DNA from: Candidatus Caldarchaeales archaeon
GTDB taxonomy: Archaea; Thermoproteota; Nitrososphaeria_A; Caldarchaeales; Wolframiiraptoraceae
Direction: 5' to 3'
NCBI GenBank assembly: GCA_039630055.1
Contig: JBCNVN010000003.1
Span: 1-56,057, forward strand
Length of the DNA stretch: 56,057 nucleotides
Shown here: positions 18,672-33,967 of the stretch, piece by piece
Numbering within the stretch: the stretch's first letter is position 1
Layout of the letters: each line of letters starts with the position of its first letter
Notes under the pieces: generated by a model
What the model was told of the DNA's origin: nothing
The model's database searches: none
The model's input: the letters and a program-made list of their open reading frames with translations, nothing else
Translations under genes and position numbers: made by a program

Positions 18672-18860
18672 TTAAAACTCGGTGACTGTTATAGCACCTG
18701 TTGGGCAGACTGCCTCGCATGATCTACATCCTATACATAGGTTTTGATTGACTGGCTCAGCCTTCCCATTCTGGAGCTCAAAGACACTTACGGGACAGAT
18801 CGTAACACATTCACTATCTCCTGTACATTTTCCCTTATCAACAGATACCATCCAAGGCAT
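18672..18860 (-). CDS. fdx: Dicluster ferredoxin (CxxDxxCxxxCP and CxxCxxCxxxCP)
   Basis: [12 protein letters not shown] and [12 protein letters not shown] in 62 aa. Confidence 0.95.
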
Positions 18861-18955: not shown

Positions 18956-19168
18956 TTAATCAGTTGCTTCTGGAACTTTTACTCTTGTTTCTCCTCCGAA
19001 TGATACCCATTCAACTTTTCCTTCACTAACAAGCATGTTGACAGCCTTATCTACAATCTTCTTATCTAGTTTTAATGTTCTAGCAATATCTTTATTTGTA
19101 ACCGACCTTTTCACTTTCTTCAAGTATTCTAGAATCTGCTGCTTAACCGTTTCAGTAACCTCCGACAT
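18956..19168 (-). CDS. DsrD-like winged-helix protein
   Basis: 70 aa, first gene downstream of dsrB; KQQILEYL...AVNMLVSEGKVEWVSFGGET parallels DsrD but lacks its YWSSGST signature; GAGGT SD. Confidence 0.6.
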   Translation of the reverse strand: MSEVTETVKQQILEYLKKVKRSVTNKDIARTLKLDKKIVDKAVNMLVSEGKVEWVSFGGETRVKVPEATD

Positions 19169-19411: not shown

Positions 19412-20485
19412 TTATCTCCATTTAAACAGTGTCGTTGTTCTAAATGTCGGTAGTGAGAATATGTAGTCGTCAATGTGTTTTTCTGTGAAAGGTATACCTG
19501 TCAACGTAAAGAATCTCTCCCACCCTATCCTCCTTATCCAGTCCCCTATCCTCTCACCTTTCTTGGCATACTTGATCCATGTATCTATCACTTGTCTAGC
19601 AGCTTTGACTGCCTCTGGCCATCTTGGAGGATTATTCGGAAGATATGGGATGGCTAATCTCGAGAATTCAGGAGGCCCTCCAGCGACAGCGTTTCCTCCA
19701 ACCCACATGGATAGACAATCGTATTTTGGATTGTGTATGAACATCCCTGGGCAGACAGTATAGCAGTTTCCACAGTACATACATCTCTCCTCGTTGACTA
19801 TAACAGACTTCTTCTCTGGAGCGGGTCTAATGGCTCCCGTTGGACAGCTAGCGACAAGTGTTGGTATCTCACAGAGTCTACTAACGATGTCATCCATCAC
19901 TATTGGAGGCTTCCTATGCATCCCTACAAATGCCAGGTCAGAGCAATGTACTGCGCCACACATATTGAGGCAGCAGGCCACCGCTATCTTAAGCTTTCCA
20001 GGGAGATCGTCTCTGATAAAGTATTCGTATAGTTCATCGTAGAGAGCCTTGGAAAGCCCTGGAGCATCTATTATCGCTGTGTGACAGTGAACCCAACCTT
20101 GGGCACTTATTATAGCCTTCAGAGATCTACCTGTACCGCCTACAGGCCAACCCCTCTCTTTCAATTCTTTAAGCAATCCTTCAAGTTTATTCTTATCTGT
20201 GACTATGAATTCTACATTGTGTCTACTTGTGAACTTTACGTATCCATCAGAGTATTTGTCAGCGATGTCACATAGCTCTCTAACAAAGTAGACGCTGACG
20301 ATCTTGGGTATTCCAGCTCTAACCATATAGACCTCATCTCCATCCATAGATACATGTTTAATTATTCCTGGCCCTACATATTCATGGTATTTCCATTTGC
20401 CGTAATTCTTGAGTAATGCTGGATGAAGCATCTCTCTATAGTGGGGTGGCCCGATATCTGTTACAATTTTTCTCTCTGTAGACAT
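19412..20485 (-). CDS. dsrB: Dissimilatory sulfite reductase beta subunit
   Basis: TDIGPPHY, NYGKWKYHE, TSRHNVEF, QGWVHCHT, ACCLNMCGAVHCSD, CMYCGNCY and PNNPPRWPE. Confidence 0.98.
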   Translation of the reverse strand: MSTERKIVTDIGPPHYREMLHPALLKNYGKWKYHEYVGPGIIKHVSMDGDEVYMVRAGIPKIVSVYFVRELCDIADKYSDGYVKFTSRHNVEFIVTDKNKLEGLLKELKERGWPVGGTGRSLKAIISAQGWVHCHTAIIDAPGLSKALYDELYEYFIRDDLPGKLKIAVACCLNMCGAVHCSDLAFVGMHRKPPIVMDDIVSRLCEIPTLVASCPTGAIRPAPEKKSVIVNEERCMYCGNCYTVCPGMFIHNPKYDCLSMWVGGNAVAGGPPEFSRLAIPYLPNNPPRWPEAVKAARQVIDTWIKYAKKGERIGDWIRRIGWERFFTLTGIPFTEKHIDDYIFSLPTFRTTTLFKWR

Positions 20486-20489
20486 ATCT

Positions 20490-21668
20490 TCACTTCACCC
20501 CCTCGAGTTCTTCAGGATTCCAGAAGAAGTATGGATTAGCTCTAGGAGCGTAAACCATCTGCGGCATCGGTGGTTGACCGATACTTTTCAAGAAATTCCT
20601 CATCCCAACCCTATATACCAGCTCTCCCACCCTCTCTCTCGGCTTAGCATTTTCATCCCACCAATCAAGGATCTTCCTCGTCAATTCTTTTAGTTCTGTG
20701 TATGGTTTATCGGCTTTCATAAATGGTACTATGACCCATCCGAGGAAAGCTCCTTGAAGTATTGTAGCTTTTCCTCCGAGGAGAACCGATACTCCTCTGT
20801 CATCTCCGGGGAGAATAGCTTTTGGAAGAGCTGATAGACACCTCATACATCTAGTGCAGTCTTCTGGTATGACTCTTAACTCTTTACCATCCCATTCGAG
20901 GGCTTGGGGAGGGCATCTCGCCGCTACAGTAGCTATATTGACACCTTTCTTAGCATACTCTCTAACAGCTTCTTGATCTATCTTTATCGAGTCTCTCCAT
21001 GTTCCTATAATTGCTAAGTCTGCACGTGCTAGAGCTGCAACACAATCATTTGGACATCCAGCGATCTTAATCTTGAATTTGTATGGAAATCTAGGTCTAT
21101 GTATCTCGTCTTGGAGCTCCATAGTCATCTCCTGGTATATGTCGAGAGTGTCGATGCATGTCCATTGGCAGAATGCTGGCCCACCGCAACAGCTTAGGCT
21201 TCTTACATCTCCTCCTGAGCCTCCTAGGTCGAATCCAATAGAGAGTAGATCTTCAAAGCATGGTTGTAAGCTGGCTGTTTGAGCTCCTAAGAGAATGATG
21301 TCTCCTGTTGAGCCGTGAAGGTTCATAAATCCTGATCCATGCTTCTCCCACACATCGCAAAGCTTTCTAAGTGCCTTAGTTGAATAAAACCATCCGGCGG
21401 GCTCTGCAACTCTAACTGTATGAACTTCAGGGGTAGGCATATCACTGGTGGGAAGGTCACTGTATCTGCCGATTACTCCAGCTCCATAACCTCTTACACC
21501 AACTATACCTCCATGCTTCCAGTGGGTTACCCTCTCCAAGTAGGATCTTTCAAGCTGTAGTAGGATATTCTTTGAGTAGGGTTTTATATCTGCCATCCGT
21601 TTTAACTCCTTTATAAAGCTGGGCCACGGCCCCTTATCTAGTTCATCTAGGAGAGGTGTCTCAGACAT
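20490..21668 (-). CDS. dsrA: Dissimilatory sulfite reductase alpha subunit
   Basis: TPLLDELDKGPWPSF, HWKHGGIVGVRGYG, HTVRV, HGSTGDI, CX5C (CGGPAFC), FPYKFKIK and GCPNDC. Confidence 0.98.
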   Translation of the reverse strand: MSETPLLDELDKGPWPSFIKELKRMADIKPYSKNILLQLERSYLERVTHWKHGGIVGVRGYGAGVIGRYSDLPTSDMPTPEVHTVRVAEPAGWFYSTKALRKLCDVWEKHGSGFMNLHGSTGDIILLGAQTASLQPCFEDLLSIGFDLGGSGGDVRSLSCCGGPAFCQWTCIDTLDIYQEMTMELQDEIHRPRFPYKFKIKIAGCPNDCVAALARADLAIIGTWRDSIKIDQEAVREYAKKGVNIATVAARCPPQALEWDGKELRVIPEDCTRCMRCLSALPKAILPGDDRGVSVLLGGKATILQGAFLGWVIVPFMKADKPYTELKELTRKILDWWDENAKPRERVGELVYRVGMRNFLKSIGQPPMPQMVYAPRANPYFFWNPEELEGVK

Positions 21669-21957: not shown

Positions 21958-23343
21958 TCAATAGACTAATGCATTTGCGACTATCTCACTTAAACCTGAT
22001 ACTTTAATATTCGAGTTATAATAGCTAATTACGTCTAGGAACTGTCTCTTACAGTTTGCGCAGATGGTTACCAATGTTGAGGCACCAGTATTCTGAACCT
22101 GCTGTAATTTTAGTCTTCCATAAGTCTTCATTCTAAAGTCTAGGAAATTATATTTATTCATAAGTGCGAATCCGCTACCTCCACCGCAACAATAATTGTA
22201 CTCTCTGTTCGGATACATCTCTCTGAAATCTCTACATGAGGCAGCGATTACTCTACGGGGTTCATCATATATTCCTCCACATCTTCCTATCTTGCATGAA
22301 TCATGGAATGTTACCGGCTCGACATTCTTGTTTTTATCAAGTTTTAGCTTACCCTCTCTCAACAGCTTATCATATAGTTCAACTATGTGTATCACCTTGA
22401 ATGGTCTCTCCTCAGGTGGTATGAGATCTTTTATTATGTGTCCTAGAACGTCATATGCGTGTCCACATTCTCCTACAACGACATATTCTGGCTTAAGCTT
22501 ATTAATAGTATCTAGATGTGCTCTAATCACTCTCATCAAGTCTTTATCACTATAGAATAGCCCATAGTTGACGTTGTCGAATACTCCTGTTCTAGGAGAA
22601 TTGAATGTCCAATCTTCATTAACGTAATTCATTATCTCAACTATTCCTCTAATAGTATCGAGAAAGGATAGATAGTCTCCCGCATTATTTATTATCAGAT
22701 ACTTTGCACCAACTTTATCAATTGGAATCTCCACATTTACATTCTTTCTATTCTCTTCAATCTCGCTTTTTACAAAATCTAGAATATTGACCAGGGCTTC
22801 ATAGGTTATCTTTGGAGCGTTACCATATTTTAGTATGTTCTCTACACCTTCCTCTTTTAATTCATCTGGAACTATACCTATTTCTGCTAATATCTTTCTT
22901 GCTTCTCTCATAATCAGCCCATTGTCTAGACCGAATGGACATGCTAAGACGCATCTTCTACAGATAGTACACCTATAGGCTGCCTCGGATATAGCATTGA
23001 TATCTCTTTCTGTAGCTTCAGCAGCGCCTACCAGTCTACCGAAGATCTTTCCACTCAATGTAAAGTGTTTCTTATAGATCCTTCTTAGCATATCAGACCT
23101 GTAGACTGGGCTATAGATCCTTTCTCTCCCACTTCCAATATAGACTGGGCATGCCTCGGCGCATGTACCACAATGTGTGCAAGCTTCCAGGCTTAATTTT
23201 AGTGGAAGTAAGAATGGCCAGTTATTCTCTTTGGTAAGCATTTCTCTGAATGCTTTAAGAAATCTTTCAACCTTCGGCTCGTTTGGACGGATCTTTGCAT
23301 CAGATATACATCTATAATCATCGAATAACTTTTCTACCTTCAT
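21958..23343 (-). CDS. dsrK: DsrK-like Fe-S/CCG (HdrD-like) protein, copy upstream of dsrA
   Basis: CTHCGTCAEACP, CTICRRCVLACP, GECGH, FHDSC, CCGGGSG, ICANCK; ATGA-coupled to a DsrM-like gene. Confidence 0.85.
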   Translation of the reverse strand: MKVEKLFDDYRCISDAKIRPNEPKVERFLKAFREMLTKENNWPFLLPLKLSLEACTHCGTCAEACPVYIGSGRERIYSPVYRSDMLRRIYKKHFTLSGKIFGRLVGAAEATERDINAISEAAYRCTICRRCVLACPFGLDNGLIMREARKILAEIGIVPDELKEEGVENILKYGNAPKITYEALVNILDFVKSEIEENRKNVNVEIPIDKVGAKYLIINNAGDYLSFLDTIRGIVEIMNYVNEDWTFNSPRTGVFDNVNYGLFYSDKDLMRVIRAHLDTINKLKPEYVVVGECGHAYDVLGHIIKDLIPPEERPFKVIHIVELYDKLLREGKLKLDKNKNVEPVTFHDSCKIGRCGGIYDEPRRVIAASCRDFREMYPNREYNYCCGGGSGFALMNKYNFLDFRMKTYGRLKLQQVQNTGASTLVTICANCKRQFLDVISYYNSNIKVSGLSEIVANALVY

Positions 23344-24041
23344 TTACTCATCCCTCCATGTCTCTGGTCAAGAATTATTTTTTGACCGTAAAATATCGAT
23401 ATTGGATGTATAAGGGTCTTAAAAGGTAGATACATCATGTAAATCTGTGCAAAGAGTATGTGAACCAAAAATATAATATCAGCTGGAGGTAAGACTGGAT
23501 TTAAGCTTAAGATCCCCTGAACCCATGCCCATACTTGAGCAGAATCCACTAACTTAAACATTCGAATATATTGACCGAGAAATAGTGTTATAATAAGTAG
23601 TGCTAGAGCGAAGTAATCTGTAAAATAAGATTCAGCTCTTTTGTCTTTGAGCCTTCTCAAGAGGAAACCGATAGATCCGATAGCTGCAGAGAATCCTGCG
23701 ACCGTGCCTATCTCATATTCTAGAGCTACATGAGGTAGGAAAACGTATTTGGCATGTAGTGAGAGGCTTATAATCAATCCAATATGAAACATCCACGTTA
23801 ACGTAAAAATCAACTTATCAAATTTCCTTGGACCGGGTAATGAGAAAATCCTCAAACCAATTGTAAGTAGTATGCTTGTACGGGTTTTTTTAGCTGGGAA
23901 GACAGCCCACATTATCGGCTTGGGTAAAAACATCCACTTAAAGAAATTGTATGCCAATGCTACTATGAACATTATTAAAGTAAGATAGGGCAATACCACT
24001 CCTATAGTACTCACAATAAGATCAGTCAACTTATAAGACAC
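23340..24041 (-). CDS. dsrM: DsrM-like (NarI family) diheme cytochrome b, copy upstream of dsrA
   Basis: Multiple TM helices with two His pairs (FHIGLIISLSLH; VHILFAQIYMMYLPFKTLIH). Confidence 0.85.
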   Translation of the reverse strand: MSYKLTDLIVSTIGVVLPYLTLIMFIVALAYNFFKWMFLPKPIMWAVFPAKKTRTSILLTIGLRIFSLPGPRKFDKLIFTLTWMFHIGLIISLSLHAKYVFLPHVALEYEIGTVAGFSAAIGSIGFLLRRLKDKRAESYFTDYFALALLIITLFLGQYIRMFKLVDSAQVWAWVQGILSLNPVLPPADIIFLVHILFAQIYMMYLPFKTLIHPISIFYGQKIILDQRHGGMSK

Positions 24042-24098: not shown

Positions 24099-24845
24099 CT
24101 ATTCTTCTAACCATTTAAGCCTCCTTCCCAACGAGGCTACTCTTCCAAAGACTAATACCGCCGGAGCCTTAACATTATTCTCTCTAGCAATTTCAATGAT
24201 ATTATCAAGTTCAGAGATAAATACTCTCTGATCTCTAAGTGTTGCATTCTCTATTATGGCCACAGGTGTTTCTCGGTGAAGACCCGTCTTTAAAGCTGCT
24301 TCTACTATCTTCTCAAAGTTCGAAACCCCCATCAAAACAATTACAGTATCCACAGATTTGAATATCTTCTCCAAGTACTCCATCTCTCCAGATTCATTAA
24401 ATCCCTCTCTCCTATGACCTGTAACTATCGCAACGGATGATGAATAGTCTCTATGGGTTATGGGGATGCCTGCATAAGCTGGAGCAGCAAGAGCTGAAGA
24501 TACCCCTGGAATTATCTCATATCGTATTCCAGCCTGTTTAAGGACTTCACATTCTTCTCCACCTCTAGCGAATAACATAGGATCACCATTCTTCAACCTA
24601 ACGACCTTATCATATTTCTGAGCCTTCTCGATCATAAGCTTGTTTATCTCTTCTTGCTTCCAGCTCTCACCCATCTTTTTACCAACACAGATCAATTCTT
24701 TAGCATTTACAGCGAATTTTAATATCATCTCATCTATAAGCCTATCATATATTACGATGTCAGCCTTCTCCAAAACCTTCAAACCTTTTAGAGTTATTAA
24801 TTCGGGGTCTCCGGGACCTGCACCAACGAGATATACTTTGCCCAC
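24099..24845 (-). CDS. cobA: Uroporphyrinogen-III C-methyltransferase (siroheme synthesis)
   Basis: GKVYLVGAGPGDPELITLKG, VVRLKNGDP, RGGEE, IPGVSS and GIPITHR. Confidence 0.96.
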   Translation of the reverse strand: MGKVYLVGAGPGDPELITLKGLKVLEKADIVIYDRLIDEMILKFAVNAKELICVGKKMGESWKQEEINKLMIEKAQKYDKVVRLKNGDPMLFARGGEECEVLKQAGIRYEIIPGVSSALAAPAYAGIPITHRDYSSSVAIVTGHRREGFNESGEMEYLEKIFKSVDTVIVLMGVSNFEKIVEAALKTGLHRETPVAIIENATLRDQRVFISELDNIIEIARENNVKAPAVLVFGRVASLGRRLKWLEE

Positions 24846-25038: not shown

Positions 25039-25719
25039 ATGAGGATGCCATTCTTTATAGAGATGTCCAATAAGAGGATCTTGATAATTGGTGGAGGCGA
25101 CGAAGGTTTTAGAAGAGCTGAGAAGTATTGTAAGACTGGAGCGGAGATAATAGTCTATAGTAAAAGTTTTGATGATGGTTTGATGAAGCTATCAAGCGAT
25201 AATAGAGTAAAACTGGTTGTAGGAGATGTAGAAGATGAAGAAAGATTAGAAAGGTTGATTGAAGATGTAGATATAGTGATGGTCGCTCTAGATGAGAAGA
25301 ACTACAACTATAAGATCGAGAAACTTGCTAGGAGACATCGTAGATTACTAAACCTTGCCAATGATGCCGAAGAGACTGAGGTAGTAGTACCAATAGATTC
25401 CAAGATAGGCTCTATCAGGATCGCTTTAACCACAGAGGGTAAGAGTAGCATGGTTGCGAGAGAAGCTCTGGATAAGATAACAAAATTCTTAGAAGGAGAA
25501 CGTGAACTATTAGATTTGGCAGAGATAATGTATAAAGTAAAAAGGATAGTAAGAAAAAATATACCAGATTATAAGAAACGATTTGAGATATATAGGAAAA
25601 TCTTCAACAATGCTTCACTGAGAGAAGCTCTCAGGTCTGGAGATCATAGGAGAGCTGTAGAGATATACTCTAAAATCTTGATGGATGAAGGTTTAGACCC
25701 TGGAGAGGTCAAAGTTTGA
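25039..25719 (+). CDS. Precorrin-2 dehydrogenase / sirohydrochlorin ferrochelatase (SirC/Met8p/CysG-N type)
   Basis: MPFFIEM..KRILIIGGG Rossmann motif, LNLAND, IALTTEGKS; divergent from cobA. Confidence 0.9.
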   Translation: MRMPFFIEMSNKRILIIGGGDEGFRRAEKYCKTGAEIIVYSKSFDDGLMKLSSDNRVKLVVGDVEDEERLERLIEDVDIVMVALDEKNYNYKIEKLARRHRRLLNLANDAEETEVVVPIDSKIGSIRIALTTEGKSSMVAREALDKITKFLEGERELLDLAEIMYKVKRIVRKNIPDYKKRFEIYRKIFNNASLREALRSGDHRRAVEIYSKILMDEGLDPGEVKV

Positions 25720-27095
25720 TCAACCCTCGAAGGATAATTATCTCGAGTGTTAGTGGAAAGTCTGGTAAGACGGTTATAACGACGGCGATAATCAAGAAGC
25801 TTGAAGAGCGAGGGTACAAGGTTCAACCATTCAAGGTTGGACCAGACTTCATAGACCCCTCTTATCATAACAAATTTTCAAGTAAACCTTCACGAAACCT
25901 AGACTCCATCATCATGAAGAGAGAAGTTCTATTATCATCTTTTACAAGATCGATGAAAGATGCAGACATAGGTGTAGTTGAAGGTGTCTTCGGGCTCTAT
26001 GATAGTATGGATGGGGTGTCCGAGAACGGTAGTACAGCTCAACTCGCCAAGATCCTCAAAGCTCCTGTGATTTTAATCGTAAACGCCGAGAGGATAAACC
26101 GAGGATTATTAGCGATAATAAAAGGTTTTAGAGAGTTTGACAGAGAGGTCAAGCTCAAAGGCTTAATCATAAACAACATAGGAAGCGAGAGGCAGAGGGA
26201 AAAGATTGTAAAGACAGTTCGAGAACATTTTAAAGATCTGGAGATTGTTGGAGCAGTCTATAGGAGTGAGCTCGTTGAAGAGAAGATGAAGTACAGGCAT
26301 CTAGGTTTGATACCGATGGATGAGAGGGCTATGGAACTTCATGATATAAGAGAGGCCATAAATCAAGTAGCAGAACAGATCGATATAGATAAAATAATTG
26401 ATATTGCATCTCAAGTTGAAGAACTTCCAGAGTCGACCGAAAATCCATTAAATATCCACTTCAATATAAGGATAGGTATAATGAAAGATAGTGTATTCTC
26501 ATTTTACTATCCTGAAAATCTTGAATACCTCCAACAACTATCAGAGAAGATATATTACGTAAACTCTATAGAGGATGAGGTCCTCCCCGATATCGACCTA
26601 CTCTATATTGGAGGTGGATTTCCAGAGGTTTATGCAAGTCTACTTGAGAAGAACAAACCATTAAAGAGAGATATAAAAAGTAAGTTTGAGAAAGGTCTGA
26701 AGATCTATGCTGAATGTGGAGGGCTCATGTATCTTTCAGATAAGATCAAGACGTTTAATGGAGAAGATTATGAAATGGTTGGGCTGATTAGGGGTGATGT
26801 CGAGATGTTTAGAAGACCTATCGGTCATGGATACGTCTATCTTAAAGCAATTAGAGACAATCCACTAGTACGAGTAAATAATAGTATCATAGGACATGAA
26901 TTCCATCACTCTCGAATACACTTGAAAGAGAAAGTAGATTTCGCTTTCCATGTCACTAGAGGATATTGTATAGATGGGGTACATGATGGTATACTTACCG
27001 ATAGAATTCTAGCCATGTATACACATATCCATTTCCTCCATGATGATCAGCTTGTTTCTAACATCCTTAGATGGGTAGAGAAAGATCAGAGATAA
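25716..27095 (+). CDS. dsrN: Siroheme a-amide synthase DsrN (cobyrinate a,c-diamide synthase family)
   Basis: SGKT, FKVGPDFIDP, VEGVFGLYD, RHLGL, FYYPEN, YAECGGLMYL, GHEFHHS. Called dsrN rather than cbiA from the dsr/siroheme context and the lack of other cobalamin genes nearby. Confidence 0.85.
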   Translation: MINPRRIIISSVSGKSGKTVITTAIIKKLEERGYKVQPFKVGPDFIDPSYHNKFSSKPSRNLDSIIMKREVLLSSFTRSMKDADIGVVEGVFGLYDSMDGVSENGSTAQLAKILKAPVILIVNAERINRGLLAIIKGFREFDREVKLKGLIINNIGSERQREKIVKTVREHFKDLEIVGAVYRSELVEEKMKYRHLGLIPMDERAMELHDIREAINQVAEQIDIDKIIDIASQVEELPESTENPLNIHFNIRIGIMKDSVFSFYYPENLEYLQQLSEKIYYVNSIEDEVLPDIDLLYIGGGFPEVYASLLEKNKPLKRDIKSKFEKGLKIYAECGGLMYLSDKIKTFNGEDYEMVGLIRGDVEMFRRPIGHGYVYLKAIRDNPLVRVNNSIIGHEFHHSRIHLKEKVDFAFHVTRGYCIDGVHDGILTDRILAMYTHIHFLHDDQLVSNILRWVEKDQR

Positions 27096-27904: not shown

Positions 27905-28143
27905 CAGTTTAAACCTTTAGAAGGGTCAAATTAAAGTATACGTCAAGTTCAAAACATGTTTTAGAAAACTTTATATAGCTACTGCTTTCAGAGTCTCAGC
28001 CTATATTCTTCTGAACAATAAATTATTCCTTCTACCTCCAACTTACTAGTTGGTCTAAACATCTACATATTTTATTTTGATTTTTACACCTAAAAAATTA
28101 TATACCGGCATCAAAAATTATAAGATACTGTAGGTGATGGTTA

Positions 28144-28464
28144 ATGCCGTATGTAGAATTTAAAGGTCAGAAACTAGAGGTTGATGAAGATGGTTTCCTA
28201 CAGGAACCTGATAAATGGAGCCCTGAGGTAGCCGAATTTTTCGCAAAACATTTCGAGAATGTGGAAAGTCTTACAGATGAACACTGGAAAGTAATAAATT
28301 ATTTAAGAGAGTATTGGCTTAAGTATGGGGTTGCACCACCGATAAGGATGCTCATTAAACAGACCGGCTTCTCTCTCCAGAAGATCTATCAACTCTTTCC
28401 TTCAGGCCCTGCTAAGGGAGCATGTAAAGTCGCCGGGTTACCGAAGCCAACCGGATGTGTCTAA
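28144..28464 (+). CDS. dsrC: DsrC with both conserved C-terminal cysteines
   Basis: VDEDGFL, LTDEHW, APPIRML and LFPSGPAKGACKVAGLPKPTGCV; GGTGA SD. Confidence 0.97.
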   Translation: MPYVEFKGQKLEVDEDGFLQEPDKWSPEVAEFFAKHFENVESLTDEHWKVINYLREYWLKYGVAPPIRMLIKQTGFSLQKIYQLFPSGPAKGACKVAGLPKPTGCV

Positions 28465-28533
28465 TCAGATAGAAAGCCAGAGATCTAGTGTCTTCCACTG
28501 ATTTAAAATAATACTGATTTAGGGTGAAGATTA

Positions 28534-29229
28534 TTGAGTCATGATCATGAAGTAGAAAAGCCAGTATCCAAAGAGAGAAGGTCTACCCTAAAATTTATCA
28601 CGATAATCTCATTTATACTGGGTTTCGGTAGTTTAGCTAGCTTAATCAAGTCTGTTACCCCTCCTATTCTAGAGATCCCTGAATGGCCTAGAGTAAAGGT
28701 TGCAAATATTAGAACCATCAAACCTATGACCTGGTACCTCTACTCCTATCCTACTACTGAGATTCCATGCATACTTATAAAGACGGGTAAGAATGTAGAT
28801 GGAGGGGTTGGACCAGATAGAGATATTGTTTCATACGTTATGATCTGCCAACATGCAAGATACTATGGCACGATCTATATACCACCAGAGATAAATCGAG
28901 ACCCGAACAAGCTAAATTATCTGAAGACCGTTCCACCGGATATTCTCAAGCTTCACCCAGAGAAAAACCTACTATACTGTCCTGCACATGCAGGAGTCTA
29001 CGACCTAGATAACGGGGGAAGCGTTCTCTATGGACCTCCATTCTGCGGTCTAAGTAGAGCCGTCCTAGAGTATGATGAAGAGACTGGAGATATATATGTG
29101 GTTGGATTAGCTCCCCCGGCTCCACCACTTCCAGGAGTTACCCAATGTTCTATAGATGAAGAAGAGTTAAAGAGGATAATGCTTGGGAAGAAGCTTGTAT
29201 CTGAAGTTGTTTTAGAAGAGAAGGTTTAG
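28534..29229 (+). CDS. Tat-exported Rieske [2Fe-2S] protein (archaeal SoxF/SoxL-like) lacking the disulfide cysteines
   Basis: RRSTLK Tat motif plus TM; GVGPDRDIV; box I CQHARY; box II CPAHAGVY; GPP. Confidence 0.92.
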   Translation: MSHDHEVEKPVSKERRSTLKFITIISFILGFGSLASLIKSVTPPILEIPEWPRVKVANIRTIKPMTWYLYSYPTTEIPCILIKTGKNVDGGVGPDRDIVSYVMICQHARYYGTIYIPPEINRDPNKLNYLKTVPPDILKLHPEKNLLYCPAHAGVYDLDNGGSVLYGPPFCGLSRAVLEYDEETGDIYVVGLAPPAPPLPGVTQCSIDEEELKRIMLGKKLVSEVVLEEKV

Positions 29230-29240
29230 GAGGTTTAAAG

Positions 29241-30719
29241 ATGAAGAAAGGTATAATTGAGAGGTTTTCAAACTGGCTGGATGAGAACTTTGGATTCACC
29301 AAGACTATACTTAGACCAGTCCCTGAATATTCTTTGAGGAATCCTTCATACTGGCTTGGAGCTTTAGCTACAGTAGCATTCTTTACAGCTGGCGTATCTG
29401 GTATAATCCTACTACAGTATTACGATCCTCACCCGGATAATGCATGGGAGTCTGTAAGTAAGATTATGGTTGAGGTTCCATTTGGAAACCTTTTAAGAAA
29501 CATCCACATCTACTCTGCATTCTCGATGATTTTTATTACATTTATACATTTTATGAGAAATTATTTCGTCATTGCATATAAGAGACCTAGAGAGTTGATG
29601 TGGATTGTGGGGATGTTGTTAGGTATGGCCACATTGATGATGGGGTTCACGGGTTATCTTCTACCATGGTATGCTCTATCCTATGCAGCCGTAGGATTTG
29701 GGATAACAATAATAAAACAGTTGCCACAACCTCTAAGCGGTTTCTTAGAATACATAGTCTCAGGTTATGGTACAGATGCTGAATTGCTGAGAAGATTCTA
29801 TACATTCCATACAGTCTTGCTTCCAGCAACGATAATAATCTTGCTTGCTGTGAAATTACATATATTTGAAGTTCATGGTATAACTGAGCCTTTATCAAGG
29901 AATTTACCGGATGAAGAGAAGAAACTTGTACCATGGTTCCCAAACGTATTCATGTATTTCATGATACTAGTTACAGCTTTTATCGCATCAATCTTGACTG
30001 CCTCAATAATATATCCATTCGGATTACATGAGAAATATACTCCTGGGATAGTTACGATACCGATGCCTGAGTGGTATTTCATGTGGACTTATGCTATAGC
30101 TAAAACAGAATTTATCGAGGTGCTCGGAGAGACAGGTTTCAAAATATTTGTATCAACTCTCATAATCATAGTGTTAATCTTCGTATTCTTACCATTCATA
30201 GATAGATGGAAAGATAAGCATCCTTCAGAGAGACCATTCTTCATAGCTGTAGGTGTCTGGATTATAGTTGAGCTAGTATTGATGACTTACCTAGCCTGGG
30301 TTACAGCTGGCACATATATCCCATCCTATGTGGCTATACTAAGTATATTGATTCCAGGTATAGTCATCTTTCTAGTAGCCTATGGATATAAGAGAAGGAT
30401 GGAGAGAGCACCCGAGCTAGTCTGGGAGAAATTCAGCAAGATAAGTGCGACCAGATTAGATGGTAACAGGTTTGATCCTAGAAGATATAGCTGGAACTTT
30501 GTCAGATTCATATTAGGTGTAATGTGTGCTGGACTATCGTTTAGGATTATATGGGGTTCAATCTTTGAAGGGATTGGTATAGGATGGACCATGCTCGGTC
30601 TAGCCCTTATCTCAATCTCTATTCTTGAATCTATTAGAGCAGTATACATTGCAGATCTATCTTCACAGAACATAAAGAATAGATCGAGAATGCTTGAAAG
30701 GTGGTGGGGGATTGGTTAG
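29241..30719 (+). CDS. Cytochrome b of a Rieske/cytochrome b complex (long archaeal type)
   Basis: AWESV, helix-B His pair H-x13-H, YKRPRELMWIVG, FTGYLLPW, LRRFYTFH, Qo motif PEWY, LPFID, RP; extra C-terminal TM helices. Confidence 0.95.
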   Translation: MKKGIIERFSNWLDENFGFTKTILRPVPEYSLRNPSYWLGALATVAFFTAGVSGIILLQYYDPHPDNAWESVSKIMVEVPFGNLLRNIHIYSAFSMIFITFIHFMRNYFVIAYKRPRELMWIVGMLLGMATLMMGFTGYLLPWYALSYAAVGFGITIIKQLPQPLSGFLEYIVSGYGTDAELLRRFYTFHTVLLPATIIILLAVKLHIFEVHGITEPLSRNLPDEEKKLVPWFPNVFMYFMILVTAFIASILTASIIYPFGLHEKYTPGIVTIPMPEWYFMWTYAIAKTEFIEVLGETGFKIFVSTLIIIVLIFVFLPFIDRWKDKHPSERPFFIAVGVWIIVELVLMTYLAWVTAGTYIPSYVAILSILIPGIVIFLVAYGYKRRMERAPELVWEKFSKISATRLDGNRFDPRRYSWNFVRFILGVMCAGLSFRIIWGSIFEGIGIGWTMLGLALISISILESIRAVYIADLSSQNIKNRSRMLERWWGIG

Positions 30720-30972
30720 AAGAACCGATATAACACTAGCAGTACTCTTAGTATTTCAACTAGTCTTAACAGTCCTCATCTGGATGATCAACCCGATAAT
30801 AGTGACTCAGCAGATAGCTGCAGCAGGGTTCATTGCATCCAATCTACTCATTCTTGGAATGATCATATACATTTATTATAGAGGAGAAGATTATGATCAA
30901 GAATGGATATCAGCAGGTTTAGGAGTGATAGTCTTGATATTATTATTAACATATTTTAAGGGAGGGTTCTAG
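30712..30972 (+). CDS. Small 3-TM membrane protein between cytochrome b and dsrM
   Basis: Probable TTG start at 30712 after GGTGGTGGGGG (the track starts at 30694); overlaps the cyt b stop and abuts dsrM with a 0-nt gap. Confidence 0.75.
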   Translation: MVRRTDITLAVLLVFQLVLTVLIWMINPIIVTQQIAAAGFIASNLLILGMIIYIYYRGEDYDQEWISAGLGVIVLILLLTYFKGGF

Positions 30973-31782
30973 TTGGATATCCTATTATTTATCCTAGGTT
31001 CAATAACCCCCTACATTGCCTTCTTTACACTGGTACTAGGCTTAATATATAGAGTGGCTAGATGGCTGTCAATACCTGTTCCATTTAGATTCCCAGTAGC
31101 TCCCGCACCAATAACTTATGGAGGGGTTCTAAAAAGACTATCATTAGACTTCTTTGTATTTAGAAATCTGATAAGGGGAGGTAAGAAGCTGTGGCTCGGT
31201 GGATATGTATTCCACATAGCTCTAGCGATAACACTAGTATCCCATATAATAAACATCTATTTCCATCAAGTATGGGAAGTAATAGGATATGGATGGTATG
31301 AGGCGGTCCTATACTCAGGCTTCTTCTTTCTAGCCGTTCTATCCTTTCTCCTCATAAGGAGAATACTACTACCCAATATTAGATACATTTCTAATGTAGC
31401 CGACTATTTCATCTTATCTCTATTGATCGCTGTCGTCTTCTTAGGGGTCTTCATACGGAGTTTCGGGCTAGTAGATATGGCTTCTGTAAGCAGATACATG
31501 TACAGTCTATTAACATTCAATCCCATAACCCCGCCGAATAATGTCTGGTTCCTCACCCACTACGCCCTCGCCCAGATGCTATTCATATATATACCCTTCA
31601 GCAAGGTCTCCCACCTGATAGGCTGGGTCCTATCAACGACGAGGAATATGAGAAATATAACTAGATGGAAAAGACATGTTAATCCTTGGGATTATCCTGT
31701 AGAAGTGATCACTTGGGAAGAATACTATGAGAAATTTAGAGAAGAGTTGGAAAGTATTGGTCCAGGTGGTGAGAGGCGTTGA
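30973..31782 (+). CDS. dsrM: DsrM diheme cytochrome b
   Basis: FHIALAITLVSH, RRI...IRYIS...DYF, THYALAQMLFIYIPFSKVSH and the DsrM tail TRN...RHVNPW. Confidence 0.93.
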   Translation: MDILLFILGSITPYIAFFTLVLGLIYRVARWLSIPVPFRFPVAPAPITYGGVLKRLSLDFFVFRNLIRGGKKLWLGGYVFHIALAITLVSHIINIYFHQVWEVIGYGWYEAVLYSGFFFLAVLSFLLIRRILLPNIRYISNVADYFILSLLIAVVFLGVFIRSFGLVDMASVSRYMYSLLTFNPITPPNNVWFLTHYALAQMLFIYIPFSKVSHLIGWVLSTTRNMRNITRWKRHVNPWDYPVEVITWEEYYEKFREELESIGPGGERR

Positions 31783-33245
31783 AATTAGATATGAGCTTCC
31801 CGGGAAGAAAGTATAAGCTGTATGCTACATGGAAGAGAGATATGGAGACGATGAATCTACCCTTCCCGAGAGAATGGAGCCACAACCAGTTTAATCTACC
31901 TCCAAACTGGAGAGAGATAGCATTAAAGAAGATGGATGAGATGATTAATAAGATGAGGTCTGTAAAGCTCTTTCTAGATATCTGCGTAAAGTGTGGAGCA
32001 TGTACAGATAAGTGCCCATTCTTTCTCGGTACTCTAGATCCAAACAACATGCCTGTCGCGAGGCAAGACCTCTTCAGATCGATATACAAGAGATACTTTA
32101 CATTAACAGGCAAGATCTTTAGAGGATTGGTTGGGGCCGAGGAGCTAACAGAAGATATGGTCGAGAAATGGTACACATACTTCTATCAGTGCTCTCAATG
32201 TAGGAGGTGCTCAGTCTACTGCCCATACGGAATAGATACTGCAGAGATAATGATAGCTGGTAGAGAAGTATTGACAGCCATAGGTCTCAGCCCTAGGTCT
32301 TTAACCGAAGCAATAGCAAAATGTGAGACGATAGGGAACCATATGGGGATTCCTCCGGCAGCCTTGCTAAGCGCGGTAGAGTTTGCAGAAGAAGAGATAA
32401 GGGAAGAAACAGGAATCTCGGTTAAGGTACCGATCAATAAGAAGGGAGCGGAGATACTCTACATCCCACCTTCTGCAGATTTCTTCGGTGGCCCCCACTG
32501 GGGAACCTTGAAAGGAGTGATAAAGATGTTCCACCAGATTGGCCTAGATTATACGATCAGCACGTATGCTAGTGAAGGAGGAAACTTTGGAACATGGCTT
32601 GGATATGAACATATGAAGAAGATAAATAAGAAGATAGTTGAAGAGGCTAGGAGGCTTGGAGTAAAATGGATTCTGGGAGGAGAATGTGGACATATGTGGA
32701 GGGTCTTCCATGCATTTATGGATACGTTAAATGGTCCATTAGACTTTCTGGAGGAGCCTGTCTCACCTATAACCGGGACAAAGTTTGAGCATGCAGCCTC
32801 AACTAAAGTGGTTCATATATGTGAATTTACTGCAGACCTTATAAAACATGGAAAACTCAAGCTCAATCCAGATGCAAATAATAATTACGTGGTTACATAT
32901 CATGACTCATGCAACCCTGCCAGAGTTCTAGGATTGATCGAAGAACCTAGATACATCTTAAAGAATGTATGCAGGAACTATGTAGAACTCGACCCAACTC
33001 TGAACAGGGAGAGAACTATATGTTGTTGTGCAGGTGGAGGTCTCCTCGCAGATGAGACGATCGAGCTGAGGTTAAAAGCTATCAGACCAAAGATCGAGGC
33101 GATAAAGAGAACTGGAGCAAACTTCCTTGCATGCATCTGCGCAATAGACAAAGCAGCTTTTACAGAATATACTGACCACTTCAAGCTACCGATAACTGTG
33201 GGAGGAGTTCATGAACTAGTTGGAAACGCCCTCGTATTCGACTAA
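31779..33245 (+). CDS. dsrK: DsrK Fe-S/CCG catalytic subunit
   Basis: LFLDICVKCGACTDKC, NMPVAR, FYQCSQCRRCSVYCPYGIDTAEI, SEGGNFG, GECGHMWR, YHDSCN, CCAGGG and ICAID. Confidence 0.95.
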   Translation: MKLDMSFPGRKYKLYATWKRDMETMNLPFPREWSHNQFNLPPNWREIALKKMDEMINKMRSVKLFLDICVKCGACTDKCPFFLGTLDPNNMPVARQDLFRSIYKRYFTLTGKIFRGLVGAEELTEDMVEKWYTYFYQCSQCRRCSVYCPYGIDTAEIMIAGREVLTAIGLSPRSLTEAIAKCETIGNHMGIPPAALLSAVEFAEEEIREETGISVKVPINKKGAEILYIPPSADFFGGPHWGTLKGVIKMFHQIGLDYTISTYASEGGNFGTWLGYEHMKKINKKIVEEARRLGVKWILGGECGHMWRVFHAFMDTLNGPLDFLEEPVSPITGTKFEHAASTKVVHICEFTADLIKHGKLKLNPDANNNYVVTYHDSCNPARVLGLIEEPRYILKNVCRNYVELDPTLNRERTICCCAGGGLLADETIELRLKAIRPKIEAIKRTGANFLACICAIDKAAFTEYTDHFKLPITVGGVHELVGNALVFD

Positions 33246-33391: not shown

Positions 33392-33967
33392 ATGTTGTCT
33401 AGAAATTATGTGTTGATAGGTATTGGAGGTGCAAGTGATGAGGAGCCTTTACCATTAGCAGTGGAGAAGACTAGGAGGTTTGCACAGAGACTAACACAAT
33501 ACAGAGAATATGTTAAATTATTGAGCGGTGGAGATGGTGGACTTATGAGGATAGCATCTGAGGAATTTGTTAAAAGAGGGGGTGATACTGTTGGATTTAT
33601 ACCTCTGGAAGATGAGAAGAGACTGCCTACAGATCCAAGATATAACCCTTACAATTCTATCAGGATCTTGACTGGGATAACCTTGCAAGCCAGGAGTATA
33701 ATGCTTGTTAGAAGTAGCCATTCATTCGTAGTATTAGGAGGTGGTGCTGGAACAATAATAGAAGCATACTTAGCATACCTATTCTCTATACCTCTCATAT
33801 TCTTGACCGGTACCGGATATCCATCGGATAATATTGAGAAAATATGTTTAGATGGCTACCTAGATCATAAAAAAATTATTAGAGCATACTTTACTGAAGA
33901 CGCTGAGGAGGCGGCTGACCTAGCCTATAAAATGGGCTCTGAGAGAATGAGGGCATCTATTGTTTAA
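33392..33967 (+). CDS. LOG/SLOG-family nucleotide-binding protein (TIGR00725-like)
   Basis: SGGDGGLM, TVGFIP, ARS..LVRS and GGGAGTIIEAY. Confidence 0.85.
   Translation: MLSRNYVLIGIGGASDEEPLPLAVEKTRRFAQRLTQYREYVKLLSGGDGGLMRIASEEFVKRGGDTVGFIPLEDEKRLPTDPRYNPYNSIRILTGITLQARSIMLVRSSHSFVVLGGGAGTIIEAYLAYLFSIPLIFLTGTGYPSDNIEKICLDGYLDHKKIIRAYFTEDAEEAADLAYKMGSERMRASIV

Follow-up and report, generated by a model that had tools for sequence, protein, structure and literature searches.

The coupling of the final step of sulfite and sulfate respiration to energy conservation is not yet settled, and two forms of the membrane complex that reduces the DsrC trisulfide have been described. In DsrMKJOP, quinol is reported to be oxidized at DsrP and the electrons to pass from DsrO to DsrJ, DsrM and finally DsrK, while the NarI-like quinol site of DsrM is described as blocked by two arginines and by an inserted helix-3 loop (Yin et al., 2026, preprint). 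According to the text of the same preprint, the DsrM of systems that possess DsrMK only resembles NarI and probably oxidizes quinol itself. The structures of DsrMKJOP prompt one to ask what benefit DsrJOP brings over plain DsrMK (Yin et al., 2026). Here we describe a 56,057-nt stretch of DNA (the window) from an uncultured archaeon of the genus Candidatus Geocrenenecus, in which the genes of a Rieske/cytochrome b complex (bc) stand between dsrC and dsrMK in a single six-gene unit.

The window corresponds to contig C23 in a metagenome-assembled genome from a hot spring (1.54 Mb, 80 contigs, 92% complete), and the genome-wide negative results given below refer to this assembly. Candidatus Geocrenenecus is described as a genus of the Wolframiiraptoraceae, Caldarchaeales (Buessecker et al., 2022), and dsrAB in this lineage has already been reported (Hua et al., 2018; PMC6053391). 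On the plus strand of the window, dsrC, a Rieske gene, a cytochrome b gene, a gene for a small membrane protein with three helices, dsrM and dsrK follow one another with gaps of 69, 11, -26, 0 and -4 nt (Table 1), and the open reading frames (ORFs) lie exactly as an earlier sequence-only reading of this DNA had described them. That reading had also noted that dsrJ, dsrO, dsrP, cytochrome c, blue-copper and oxidase genes are absent from the unit, and indeed no dsrJOP, copper protein or c-type cytochrome subunit (c1, f or other) is encoded inside it, with oxidase genes occurring elsewhere in the genome. The interpretation that we favor, with a probability of roughly 40%, is that the bc module acts as a quinol-oxidizing front end that feeds DsrM and DsrK within one electron chain, as an analogue of DsrJOP.

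The locus shares features with several described systems and differs from each of them. With the DsrMKJOP of Archaeoglobus fulgidus and Nitratidesulfovibrio vulgaris, as described, it has in common the DsrM-DsrK core and, in the interpretation proposed here, an outer-side quinol module feeding DsrM; that module consists of DsrP (NrfD type), DsrO (iron-sulfur) and DsrJ (triheme cytochrome c) in DsrMKJOP, whereas in Geocrenenecus it would be made of the Rieske protein, cytochrome b and the small subunit. The DsrMK-only systems of Gram-positive sulfate reducers and Thermoproteales, as presented by Neukirchen et al. (2023), are similar in having dsrC and dsrMK without dsrJOP and a NarI-like open quinol site, but they are described without Rieske/cytochrome b genes, and no cytochrome b gene was found within the flanks of five Thermoprotei dsrK loci (besides that of the genome G390, discussed below). 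Haloarchaea encode a Rieske/cytochrome b complex in the operon of an anaerobic reductase, Nar, which it is thought to feed (Baymann et al., 2012; PMC3509893). There, by that account, Nar faces outward and is reached through an outer-side b-type cytochrome, whereas in Geocrenenecus no carrier cytochrome was found and electrons would have to recross the membrane because DsrK and DsrC are cytoplasmic. The bc complexes of the anammox bacterium Kuenenia likewise combine a bc complex with a cytoplasmic reductase, and one branch of the split electrons is proposed to drive a difficult reduction; the partners described are an NAD(P) reductase and multiheme proteins, and the Rieske potentials are given as +303 and +335 mV with the disulfide present, unlike the Geocrenenecus protein, which lacks the disulfide and the potential-tuning serine (PMC12954380). 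Finally, SoxABCD, SoxM and SoxNL-CbsAB of Sulfolobus are described as larger terminal complexes in which an archaeal cytochrome b works without cytochrome c1 (PMC4122944). Among NCBIfam models, SoxC scores highest with the window's cytochrome b, although its 179 bits fall far short of the cut-off of 740, and the window's Rieske protein has its best fold match in SoxF, but the Sulfolobus complexes have an oxygen reductase as partner, a PPWF or PDWY motif at the quinol-oxidizing (Qo) site and four histidines, in contrast to the sulfur reductase setting, PEWY motif and lysine of Geocrenenecus.

We found no published description of a dsrC-Rieske-cytochrome b-dsrMK operon in a search that left aside subscription journals and supplementary gene tables, which is in agreement with the earlier statement that no characterized bc-DsrMK complex is known. 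The main texts of Buessecker et al. (2022), Neukirchen et al. (2023), Hua et al. (2018) and Diao et al. (2023) contain neither "Rieske" nor "cytochrome b", and the main text of a 2026 paper in mLife lacks "Rieske" and has "cytochrome b" only within "cytochrome bd quinol oxidases".

The arrangement is conserved across the genus. When the window's species was compared with the seven other Geocrenenecus species in the genome collection (eight in total), the six genes were found in identical order in 7/7, with protein identities of 57-94%. The junction between the small-protein gene and dsrM has a gap of 0 nt and the overlap of dsrM with dsrK is 4 nt in all eight species, while the gap between the Rieske and cytochrome b genes varies from 0 to 11 nt and that between dsrC and the Rieske gene from 36 to 69 nt. 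In an alignment of the 150 nt upstream of dsrC, 8/8 species share an A/T box as well as a ribosome-binding motif, GGTG; the spacer between dsrC and the Rieske gene has the GGTG motif only, and a promoter-like box is conserved solely 5' of dsrC. Judging from the close packing and the conserved box, the six genes are likely co-transcribed as one unit. Elsewhere in the family, genera either lack cytochrome b or have one of the histidine type (31-34% identical) accompanied by a canonical Rieske protein, with no dsr genes nearby.

The linkage recurs, rearranged, in one distant lineage. Among 401 genomes of the phylum, 18 have a DsrK match at E <= 1e-80, and the sole close one outside the genus is found in G390 (70% identity), a genome whose relatives are Thermoprotei-like families; none of the other genomes among the 120 of its class has a close DsrK, and in its congener G286 neither a cytochrome b at E <= 1e-40 nor a DsrK at E <= 1e-120 is present. 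On one strand, G390 carries dsrC, Rieske, cytochrome b, a small membrane protein, a ferredoxin, dsrA and dsrB, and farther on hemA, dsrM, dsrK and a second DsrM-like/DsrK-like pair, with the cytochrome b 47% and the small membrane protein 31% identical to those of the window. The order kept in 7/7 species and the enclosure of the bc genes in the G390 dsr cluster mean that the adjacency of bc and dsr genes is more than chance, as the sequence-only reading had suggested. In a quick IQ-TREE analysis of 52 cytochrome b sequences, the nine dsr-linked rows group together, which implies one change, with a Shimodaira-Hasegawa-like approximate likelihood ratio (SH-aLRT) of 82, a value that is not strong and comes from a tree whose careful search is unfinished; in a FastTree analysis of 78 rows, the dsr-linked rows fall inside a 30-row clade with support of 96. 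Moreover, clusters of DsrM-like and of cytochrome b proteins sit on contigs of equal size: one cluster pair has four sizes in common, another shares a 12,019-nt contig, and the members of a G390-type pair have NCBI accessions ten apart. These coincidences hint at more dsr-bc lineages and do not by themselves demonstrate adjacency. The DsrM of Methanodesulfokora (Korarchaeota) is 50% identical to that of the window, and none of the cytochrome b clusters looked up lies on contigs of equal size to its own.

A scan of metagenomes with the cytochrome b alignment returned 80 loci, 12 of them with a Rieske match, 0 with dsrC, dsrM, dsrA or dsrB, and 3 with a DsrK-like match (23-25% identity); it says little about the rarity of the linkage because the patterns searched are generic cytochrome b motifs and many contigs are short. 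Two of the loci, L120:44-3470 and L144:502-4312, encode a canonical Rieske protein preceded by cytochrome b6 and by a subunit IV with PEWY, and followed, with an overlap or within 4 nt, by a 639-aa protein in which a NarI-like membrane domain is fused to an HdrD/DsrK-like CCG domain, and then by an iron-sulfur protein of 356-363 aa. A sigma-70 gene in L144 marks a bacterial origin. In the third, L140, a cytochrome b match is accompanied by a DsrK-like match in a 651-aa ORF. The L120 and L144 loci differ from Geocrenenecus in their split cytochrome b, canonical Rieske protein, fused DsrM/DsrK-like parts and 23-25% identity to DsrK; no dsrC or dsrAB was found within the flanks examined, nor did we find a published description of an operon of this type. 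They represent an independent recurrence of the pairing in another domain of life and in a different gene form, and offer the best indirect support for cooperation between bc and NarI/HdrD modules.

The Rieske protein itself is divergent. It matches no Pfam family at E <= 0.01 (PF00355 is not over threshold), and its NCBIfam match, arsenite_ox_S, reaches 65 bits, below the cut-off of 95.65. A profile of the eight orthologues searched against the PDB, however, retrieves AioB (E 1e-17) and SoxF (1e-15), and in these matches the CxH box and the CxxH box line up. The AlphaFold model (mean predicted local distance difference test, pLDDT, 85.9) is matched by Foldseek to SoxF (4.8e-10) and AioB (7.6e-10), with a root mean square deviation of 2.1 A and a template modeling (TM) score by target of 0.83, reaching up to 0.89 among the SoxF and AioB matches, so that the predicted structure has a Rieske fold. 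The cluster ligands C105, H107, C149 and H152 are invariant in 18/18 aligned proteins, and the N-terminal twin-arginine (RR) motif and hydrophobic helix fit an exported, membrane-anchored Rieske domain. An arsenite oxidase connection was rejected given that no molybdopterin-family protein is encoded in the genome.

The sequence-only reading had taken matching cofactor changes in both bc subunits as a sign of specialization. Both changes are real, and that of the Rieske protein is confined to the genus. Its box I has the sequence CQHARY and its box II CPAH, with both disulfide cysteines replaced (by Tyr and Ala) in 8/8 Geocrenenecus species and with about 20 extra residues between the boxes. 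Other archaeal Rieske proteins keep the second cysteine of box I in 29/29 cases and the CxCH of box II in 28/29, the exception, L090, looking degenerate. In addition, the serine of the Ser/Tyr pair that is reported to tune the Rieske potential (PMC12954380) is Gly in Geocrenenecus and Ala in G390. The loss of the disulfide is, by alignment, the sole genus-specific change among the bc parts, located at the outer face of the membrane; together with the loss of the serine it would be in keeping with a new partner on that side that has a lower potential. A natural precedent for a Rieske protein without the disulfide is the AioB of NT-26, judging by PDB entry titles. Against the idea of matching changes, the dsr-linked Rieske protein of G390 retains both disulfide cysteines, and the change in cytochrome b is common to relatives without dsr linkage, as detailed below. 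Besides, a second, canonical Rieske gene is found near sdhA at G000:C10:22011-22594 (L054:4012-4594), with both disulfide cysteines and an RR signal; a frameshift splits its box I after the His and ahead of the Gly-Cys, and it is either a pseudogene or an assembly error, with an intact homologue (172 aa) only in the closest species. This second gene is present in 2/8 Geocrenenecus genomes and was not found in the other six.

Cytochrome b is the only such match in its own genome and carries the PEWY Qo motif at 276-279. Three histidine heme ligands are present (H89, H103 and H190), but the fourth position, which aligns with His202 of cytochrome b6, the second ligand of the inner heme, is Lys205, and it is Lys in all eight Geocrenenecus species; PEWY, the three histidines and Lys205 are invariant in 9/9 members of the clade. 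H207, two residues farther on, gives way to W, F or Y in relatives and, by helix geometry, would be off register. With lysine at position 205, the inner heme may be Lys-ligated or missing, and so may differ from the textbook one. Lys occupies the fourth ligand position in 119 of the 120 best homologues from a large protein collection, which include proteins with Nitrososphaerales in their names, and also in both cytochrome b copies of G390 and in G364, G320 and G401, the latter three having no dsrK match (Lys-type rows: window, L079, L100-L103, L105-L117, P0061-P0180), whereas the histidine is kept in 26/26 other cytochrome b proteins of the phylum in the comparison set. The exchange of His for Lys is therefore not a dsr specialization. 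The survey of Kao and Hunte (2014), as its text describes, dropped sequences without four histidines and noted only Pyrobaculum as lacking the fourth, and the Lys form may have gone undiscussed there because of this filter.

The C-terminal extension of cytochrome b is common to many homologues, which align over 99% of the query, and none of the best 120 exceeds 534 aa, that is, no fused form is among the matches listed. The bc module is thus largely generic, and its family is used in several contexts, of which the dsr context is one. Several other settings were observed. G390 has a second Rieske-cytochrome b pair of the Lys type (L103:6956-11684; G390:C19), followed by a 123-aa membrane protein and, as read by eye, succinate dehydrogenase-like ORFs. 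At L111:7167-12542, a Rieske gene, a Lys-type cytochrome b gene and an overlapping gene for a 94-aa membrane protein precede two bd-oxidase-like ORFs, likewise read by eye, which places this bc family in a setting tied to oxygen. At L100:6798-11245, in the complete genome G364, which has no dsrK, a 400-aa protein of the EB_dh family (heme b) precedes the Rieske, cytochrome b and small protein genes, and from its family it is likely the outer-side acceptor there.

DsrC has both C-terminal cysteines, C94 and C105, dsrAB is encoded in the same genome, and conservation is high for DsrC (92-94% identity in the seven congeners) and DsrK (90-93% in congeners, 70% in G390). The small membrane protein is probably an accessory subunit of the Rieske/cytochrome b complex, to judge by the homologue (31% identical) that follows cytochrome b in G390 and by the small membrane ORFs found 3' of cytochrome b in G364, G320, G401 and L111, none of them dsr-linked; a search of the Atlas with this protein returned only unnamed small membrane proteins. 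In DsrM, H81, H91, H196 and H214 are invariant in the alignment, and the match to NF038037, a model named for the DsrMKJOP type, is 164 bits, below the cut-off of 300. Aligned with two NCBI proteins named DsrMKJOP subunit DsrM, which show R-H-L-R around the second histidine of helix 2 and an insertion of about eight residues, the DsrM proteins of the window, G390 and Methanodesulfokora have S/I/A-H-I/L-I-N and no insertion. We take the R-H-L-R arginines to be those meant by Yin et al. (2026). No DsrM homologue longer than 471 aa was found at E <= 1e-10, which is weak evidence regarding fused forms. Complex prediction for cytochrome b plus the small protein against DsrM (nine-row alignments) gave a median of 0.31 against a mark of 0.32, with runs of 0.42, 0.31 and 0.00 and controls of 0.00, 0.00 and 0.01, and is counted neither for nor against an interface.

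The absence of DsrJOP-type genes noted earlier for the unit extends to the whole genome, in which neither NrfD/DsrP nor multiheme cytochrome c was found, with no search aimed at DsrO alone. There is no ORF with two or more CxxCH motifs (eight ORFs have one each), no match to PF00127, PF06525 or PF09459, hence no cupredoxin, SoxE or EB_dh protein found, and no molybdopterin enzyme. Oxidases are nevertheless encoded. A gene for subunit I of a heme-copper oxidase (G000:C1:96896-99049; L052:1497-3650) lies amid ribosomal-protein-like ORFs, as read by eye, and just before it, in the place of subunit II, is a gene for a 192-aa membrane protein with no match to COX2 and zero cysteines, thus without a CuA site. 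From this composition the enzyme is probably a quinol oxidase. G390 and G286 encode the same divergent type of oxidase, scoring about 205-217 bits; pieces of a cytochrome bd are present in the window's genome, and NiFe hydrogenases are encoded as well.

From the content, order and conservation of the genes, the cofactor ligands and the lack of a recognizable outer-side carrier, we infer the physical contact, electron route and energetics that follow. A Rieske/cytochrome b/small-subunit complex of the Nitrososphaeria type would be produced alongside DsrC and the trisulfide reductase DsrMK and work in the same electron chain, and quinol would be oxidized at its PEWY Qo site with release of protons outside. 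Because the Rieske cluster is exported and no carrier is recognizable, its electron must reach a membrane partner with an outer-side cofactor, and the operon points to DsrM, whose outer heme takes electrons from DsrJ in DsrMKJOP. The electron would thus pass from the Rieske cluster to the outer heme of DsrM, across the membrane through the DsrM hemes, and by way of DsrK to the trisulfide of DsrC; the other electron of the pair would return to the quinone pool through the cytochrome b hemes, and the protons released per electron would be doubled in comparison with direct quinol oxidation at DsrM. The stronger claim that the Rieske protein, cytochrome b, the small subunit and DsrMK form one supercomplex, a third quinol:DsrC-trisulfide oxidoreductase beside DsrMK and DsrMKJOP and an undescribed respiratory class of general occurrence, is doubtful at present and we put it forward tentatively.

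Several points weigh against the bc module as a front end for DsrMK. By a rough estimate, a Q cycle would be feasible only if the acceptor end, made up of DsrM, DsrK and the trisulfide, lay about 150 mV above quinone, which it may not do. The alignment suggests that the quinol site of the window's DsrM is open, as in the DsrMK-only type, and therefore there would be no strict need for a quinol-oxidizing partner; the earlier proposal that the complex functionally replaces DsrJOP loses force in this respect, as a DsrM without the arginine pair and the helix-3 insertion should oxidize quinol unaided. In G390 the bc genes adjoin dsrC and dsrAB, not dsrMK, so that the strictly conserved neighbor is dsrC rather than dsrM. 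The lysine, the C-terminal extension and the small subunit all occur in relatives without dsr genes nearby, and a heme-copper oxidase, which might use the bc complex, is present in 7/8 genomes of the genus (g1), including that of the window, and in G390.

The presence of this oxidase speaks for an alternative in which the two complexes are separate, the bc complex being an ordinary complex III that serves oxygen, through the heme-copper or bd oxidase, or some other acceptor, and lying in the dsr cluster through shared regulation or through inheritance or transfer as a block. This reading, which we consider unlikely although it is the strongest of the alternatives, would be in keeping with a cytochrome b that is the only one of its genome and belongs to the family of proteins named Nitrososphaerales, and with the by-eye neighbors of its relatives, namely bd-oxidase-like ORFs after the bc-small subunit set in L111 (no family search) and succinate dehydrogenase-like ORFs beside the second bc copy of G390. 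It does not account easily for bc genes that are enclosed by dsrC and dsrMK with 0-nt or overlapping junctions in 8/8 species, and placed between dsrC and dsrAB in G390. Moreover, no carrier protein was found and the putative subunit II lacks the cysteines of a CuA site that would accept carrier electrons. The distribution of oxidases points the same way: G286 has a similar oxidase yet lacks this cytochrome b, and genus g4 has a Rieske/cytochrome b pair in 7/7 genomes and an oxidase in 0/7. In the remaining genera of the family the oxidase was found in 2/3 genomes of g3, 0/14 of g2 and 0/3 of g5.

The route originally proposed for this locus was a different one, in which the low-potential electron would pass from heme bL, or from the Lys-ligated inner heme, to the DsrM hemes and DsrK, with the Rieske electron leaving to an outside acceptor or an outside donor entering there. 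A proposal of this kind has been published for an anammox Rieske/cytochrome b complex and a cytoplasmic NAD(P) oxidoreductase, as set out in its text (PMC12954380), and cytochrome b homologues are described as parts of Sulfolobus oxidase supercomplexes (PMC4122944). The fourth ligand, Lys instead of His, may make the inner heme atypical, and the 0-nt junction with dsrM in 8/8 species would suit such contact. Nevertheless, the Rieske protein would have to be served by some acceptor or donor in this route, and none was found in the genome; the lysine, being present in nearly all of the best homologues and in non-dsr relatives, is no adaptation to DsrM; the genus-specific change sits in the outer-side Rieske protein and not in cytochrome b; and dsrM does not adjoin the bc genes in G390. 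We therefore judge it improbable. Even less probable, in our estimation, is that Dsr works in the reverse or disproportionating direction, oxidizing reduced sulfur and passing electrons from DsrC through DsrK and DsrM to quinone, then through Rieske/cytochrome b to an oxidase. An oxidative chain would need a quinol-oxidizing complex downstream of DsrMK, the genome encodes oxidases, and sulfide:quinone reductase and facultative anaerobiosis are mentioned for related bins in the text of Hua et al. (2018; PMC6053391). On the other hand, dsrB is followed by a gene whose product resembles DsrD and scores 22.3 bits, slightly short of the cut-off, no carrier from Rieske to oxidase was found, and the DsrAB of the lineage has been placed with the reductive bacterial type in papers including, as their texts state, Neukirchen et al. 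(2023) and Hua et al. (2018). The bc module as a quinol-oxidizing front end for DsrMK remains the reading that we favor.

The coordinates of the unit and of the surrounding dsr region are given in Table 1. The second DsrM-like/DsrK-like pair is encoded directly 5' of dsrAB, its homologues adjoin dsrMK in G390, and, going by this position, it may be a donor route to DsrAB. The siroheme genes are placed between the two dsr units. A SLOG/LOG-like gene lies 3' of dsrK, as it also does in 3/7 congener loci (L028, L029 and L034). Elsewhere in the genome, the sole ATP sulfurylase gene (G000:C15:6447-9525; L196) is grouped with APS kinase and glycosyltransferase genes, a context that points to sulfation or to assimilation. 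Dissimilatory sulfate reduction was rejected on these grounds, no search having been made for AprAB.

Table 1. Position and identification of the features of the dsr region in the window; the six genes of the dsrC-bc-dsrMK unit and their upstream element are listed before the others.
Feature	Position	Strand	Basis and remarks
Promoter-like A/T box (BRE/TATA-like)	28079..28105	+	About 45 nt 5' of dsrC; kept in 8/8 species; putative promoter
dsrC, 106 aa	28144..28464	+	PF04358 128 bits; TIGR03342 128 bits, cut-off 53.5
Rieske [2Fe-2S] protein, 231 aa	28534..29229	+	Profile and fold match to AioB and SoxF
Cytochrome b, 492 aa, unsplit, C-terminal extension	29241..30719	+	PF00033 109 bits; PF13631 113 bits; PF00032 29 bits
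Small membrane protein, 92 aa, three hydrophobic stretches	30694..30972	+	No Pfam or NCBIfam family
dsrM, 269 aa, NarI-type diheme cytochrome b	30973..31782	+	PF02665
dsrK, 488 aa, catalytic CCG/Fe-S subunit	31779..33245	+	NF045796 594 bits, cut-off 400; PF02754 CCG
DsrM-like, second divergent copy	23340..24041	-	DsrM model 38.9 bits
DsrK-like, second divergent copy	21958..23343	-	DsrK model 309 bits, under cut-off 400
dsrA	20490..21668	-	TIGR02064 514 bits, over cut-off
dsrB	19412..20485	-	TIGR02066 479 bits, over cut-off
DsrD-like protein	18956..19168	-	PF08679 22.3 bits, just under cut-off 24.2
2x[4Fe-4S] ferredoxin	18672..18860	-	Fer4 match
Uroporphyrinogen-III methyltransferase	24099..24845	-	NF004790 306 bits
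Siroheme synthase N-terminal domain protein	25039..25719	+	TIGR01470 81 bits
a,c-diamide synthase, DsrN type	25716..27095	+	TIGR00379 487 bits
SLOG/LOG-like protein (PF18306)	33392-33967		146 nt 3' of dsrK

Taken together, these results describe a new combination of known modules that is conserved and probably functional, and the operon may represent a new coupling of sulfite reduction to energy conservation. A lineage with a Rieske/cytochrome b complex in the place of DsrJOP is a natural comparison for the question of what DsrJOP contributes. From the proposed role it is predicted that sulfite respiration in these archaea would be sensitive to Qo inhibitors and that their Rieske protein would have a low potential, expected to lie well below +150 mV given the missing disulfide and serine. 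If the two modules do form one complex, Qo chemistry would add the proton yield of a Q cycle or split the electrons, and sulfite respiration would pay better at high temperature. The known uses of Rieske/cytochrome b complexes in anaerobes would also be widened, and the little-known Lys-type family of archaeal cytochrome b would gain a concrete physiological setting.

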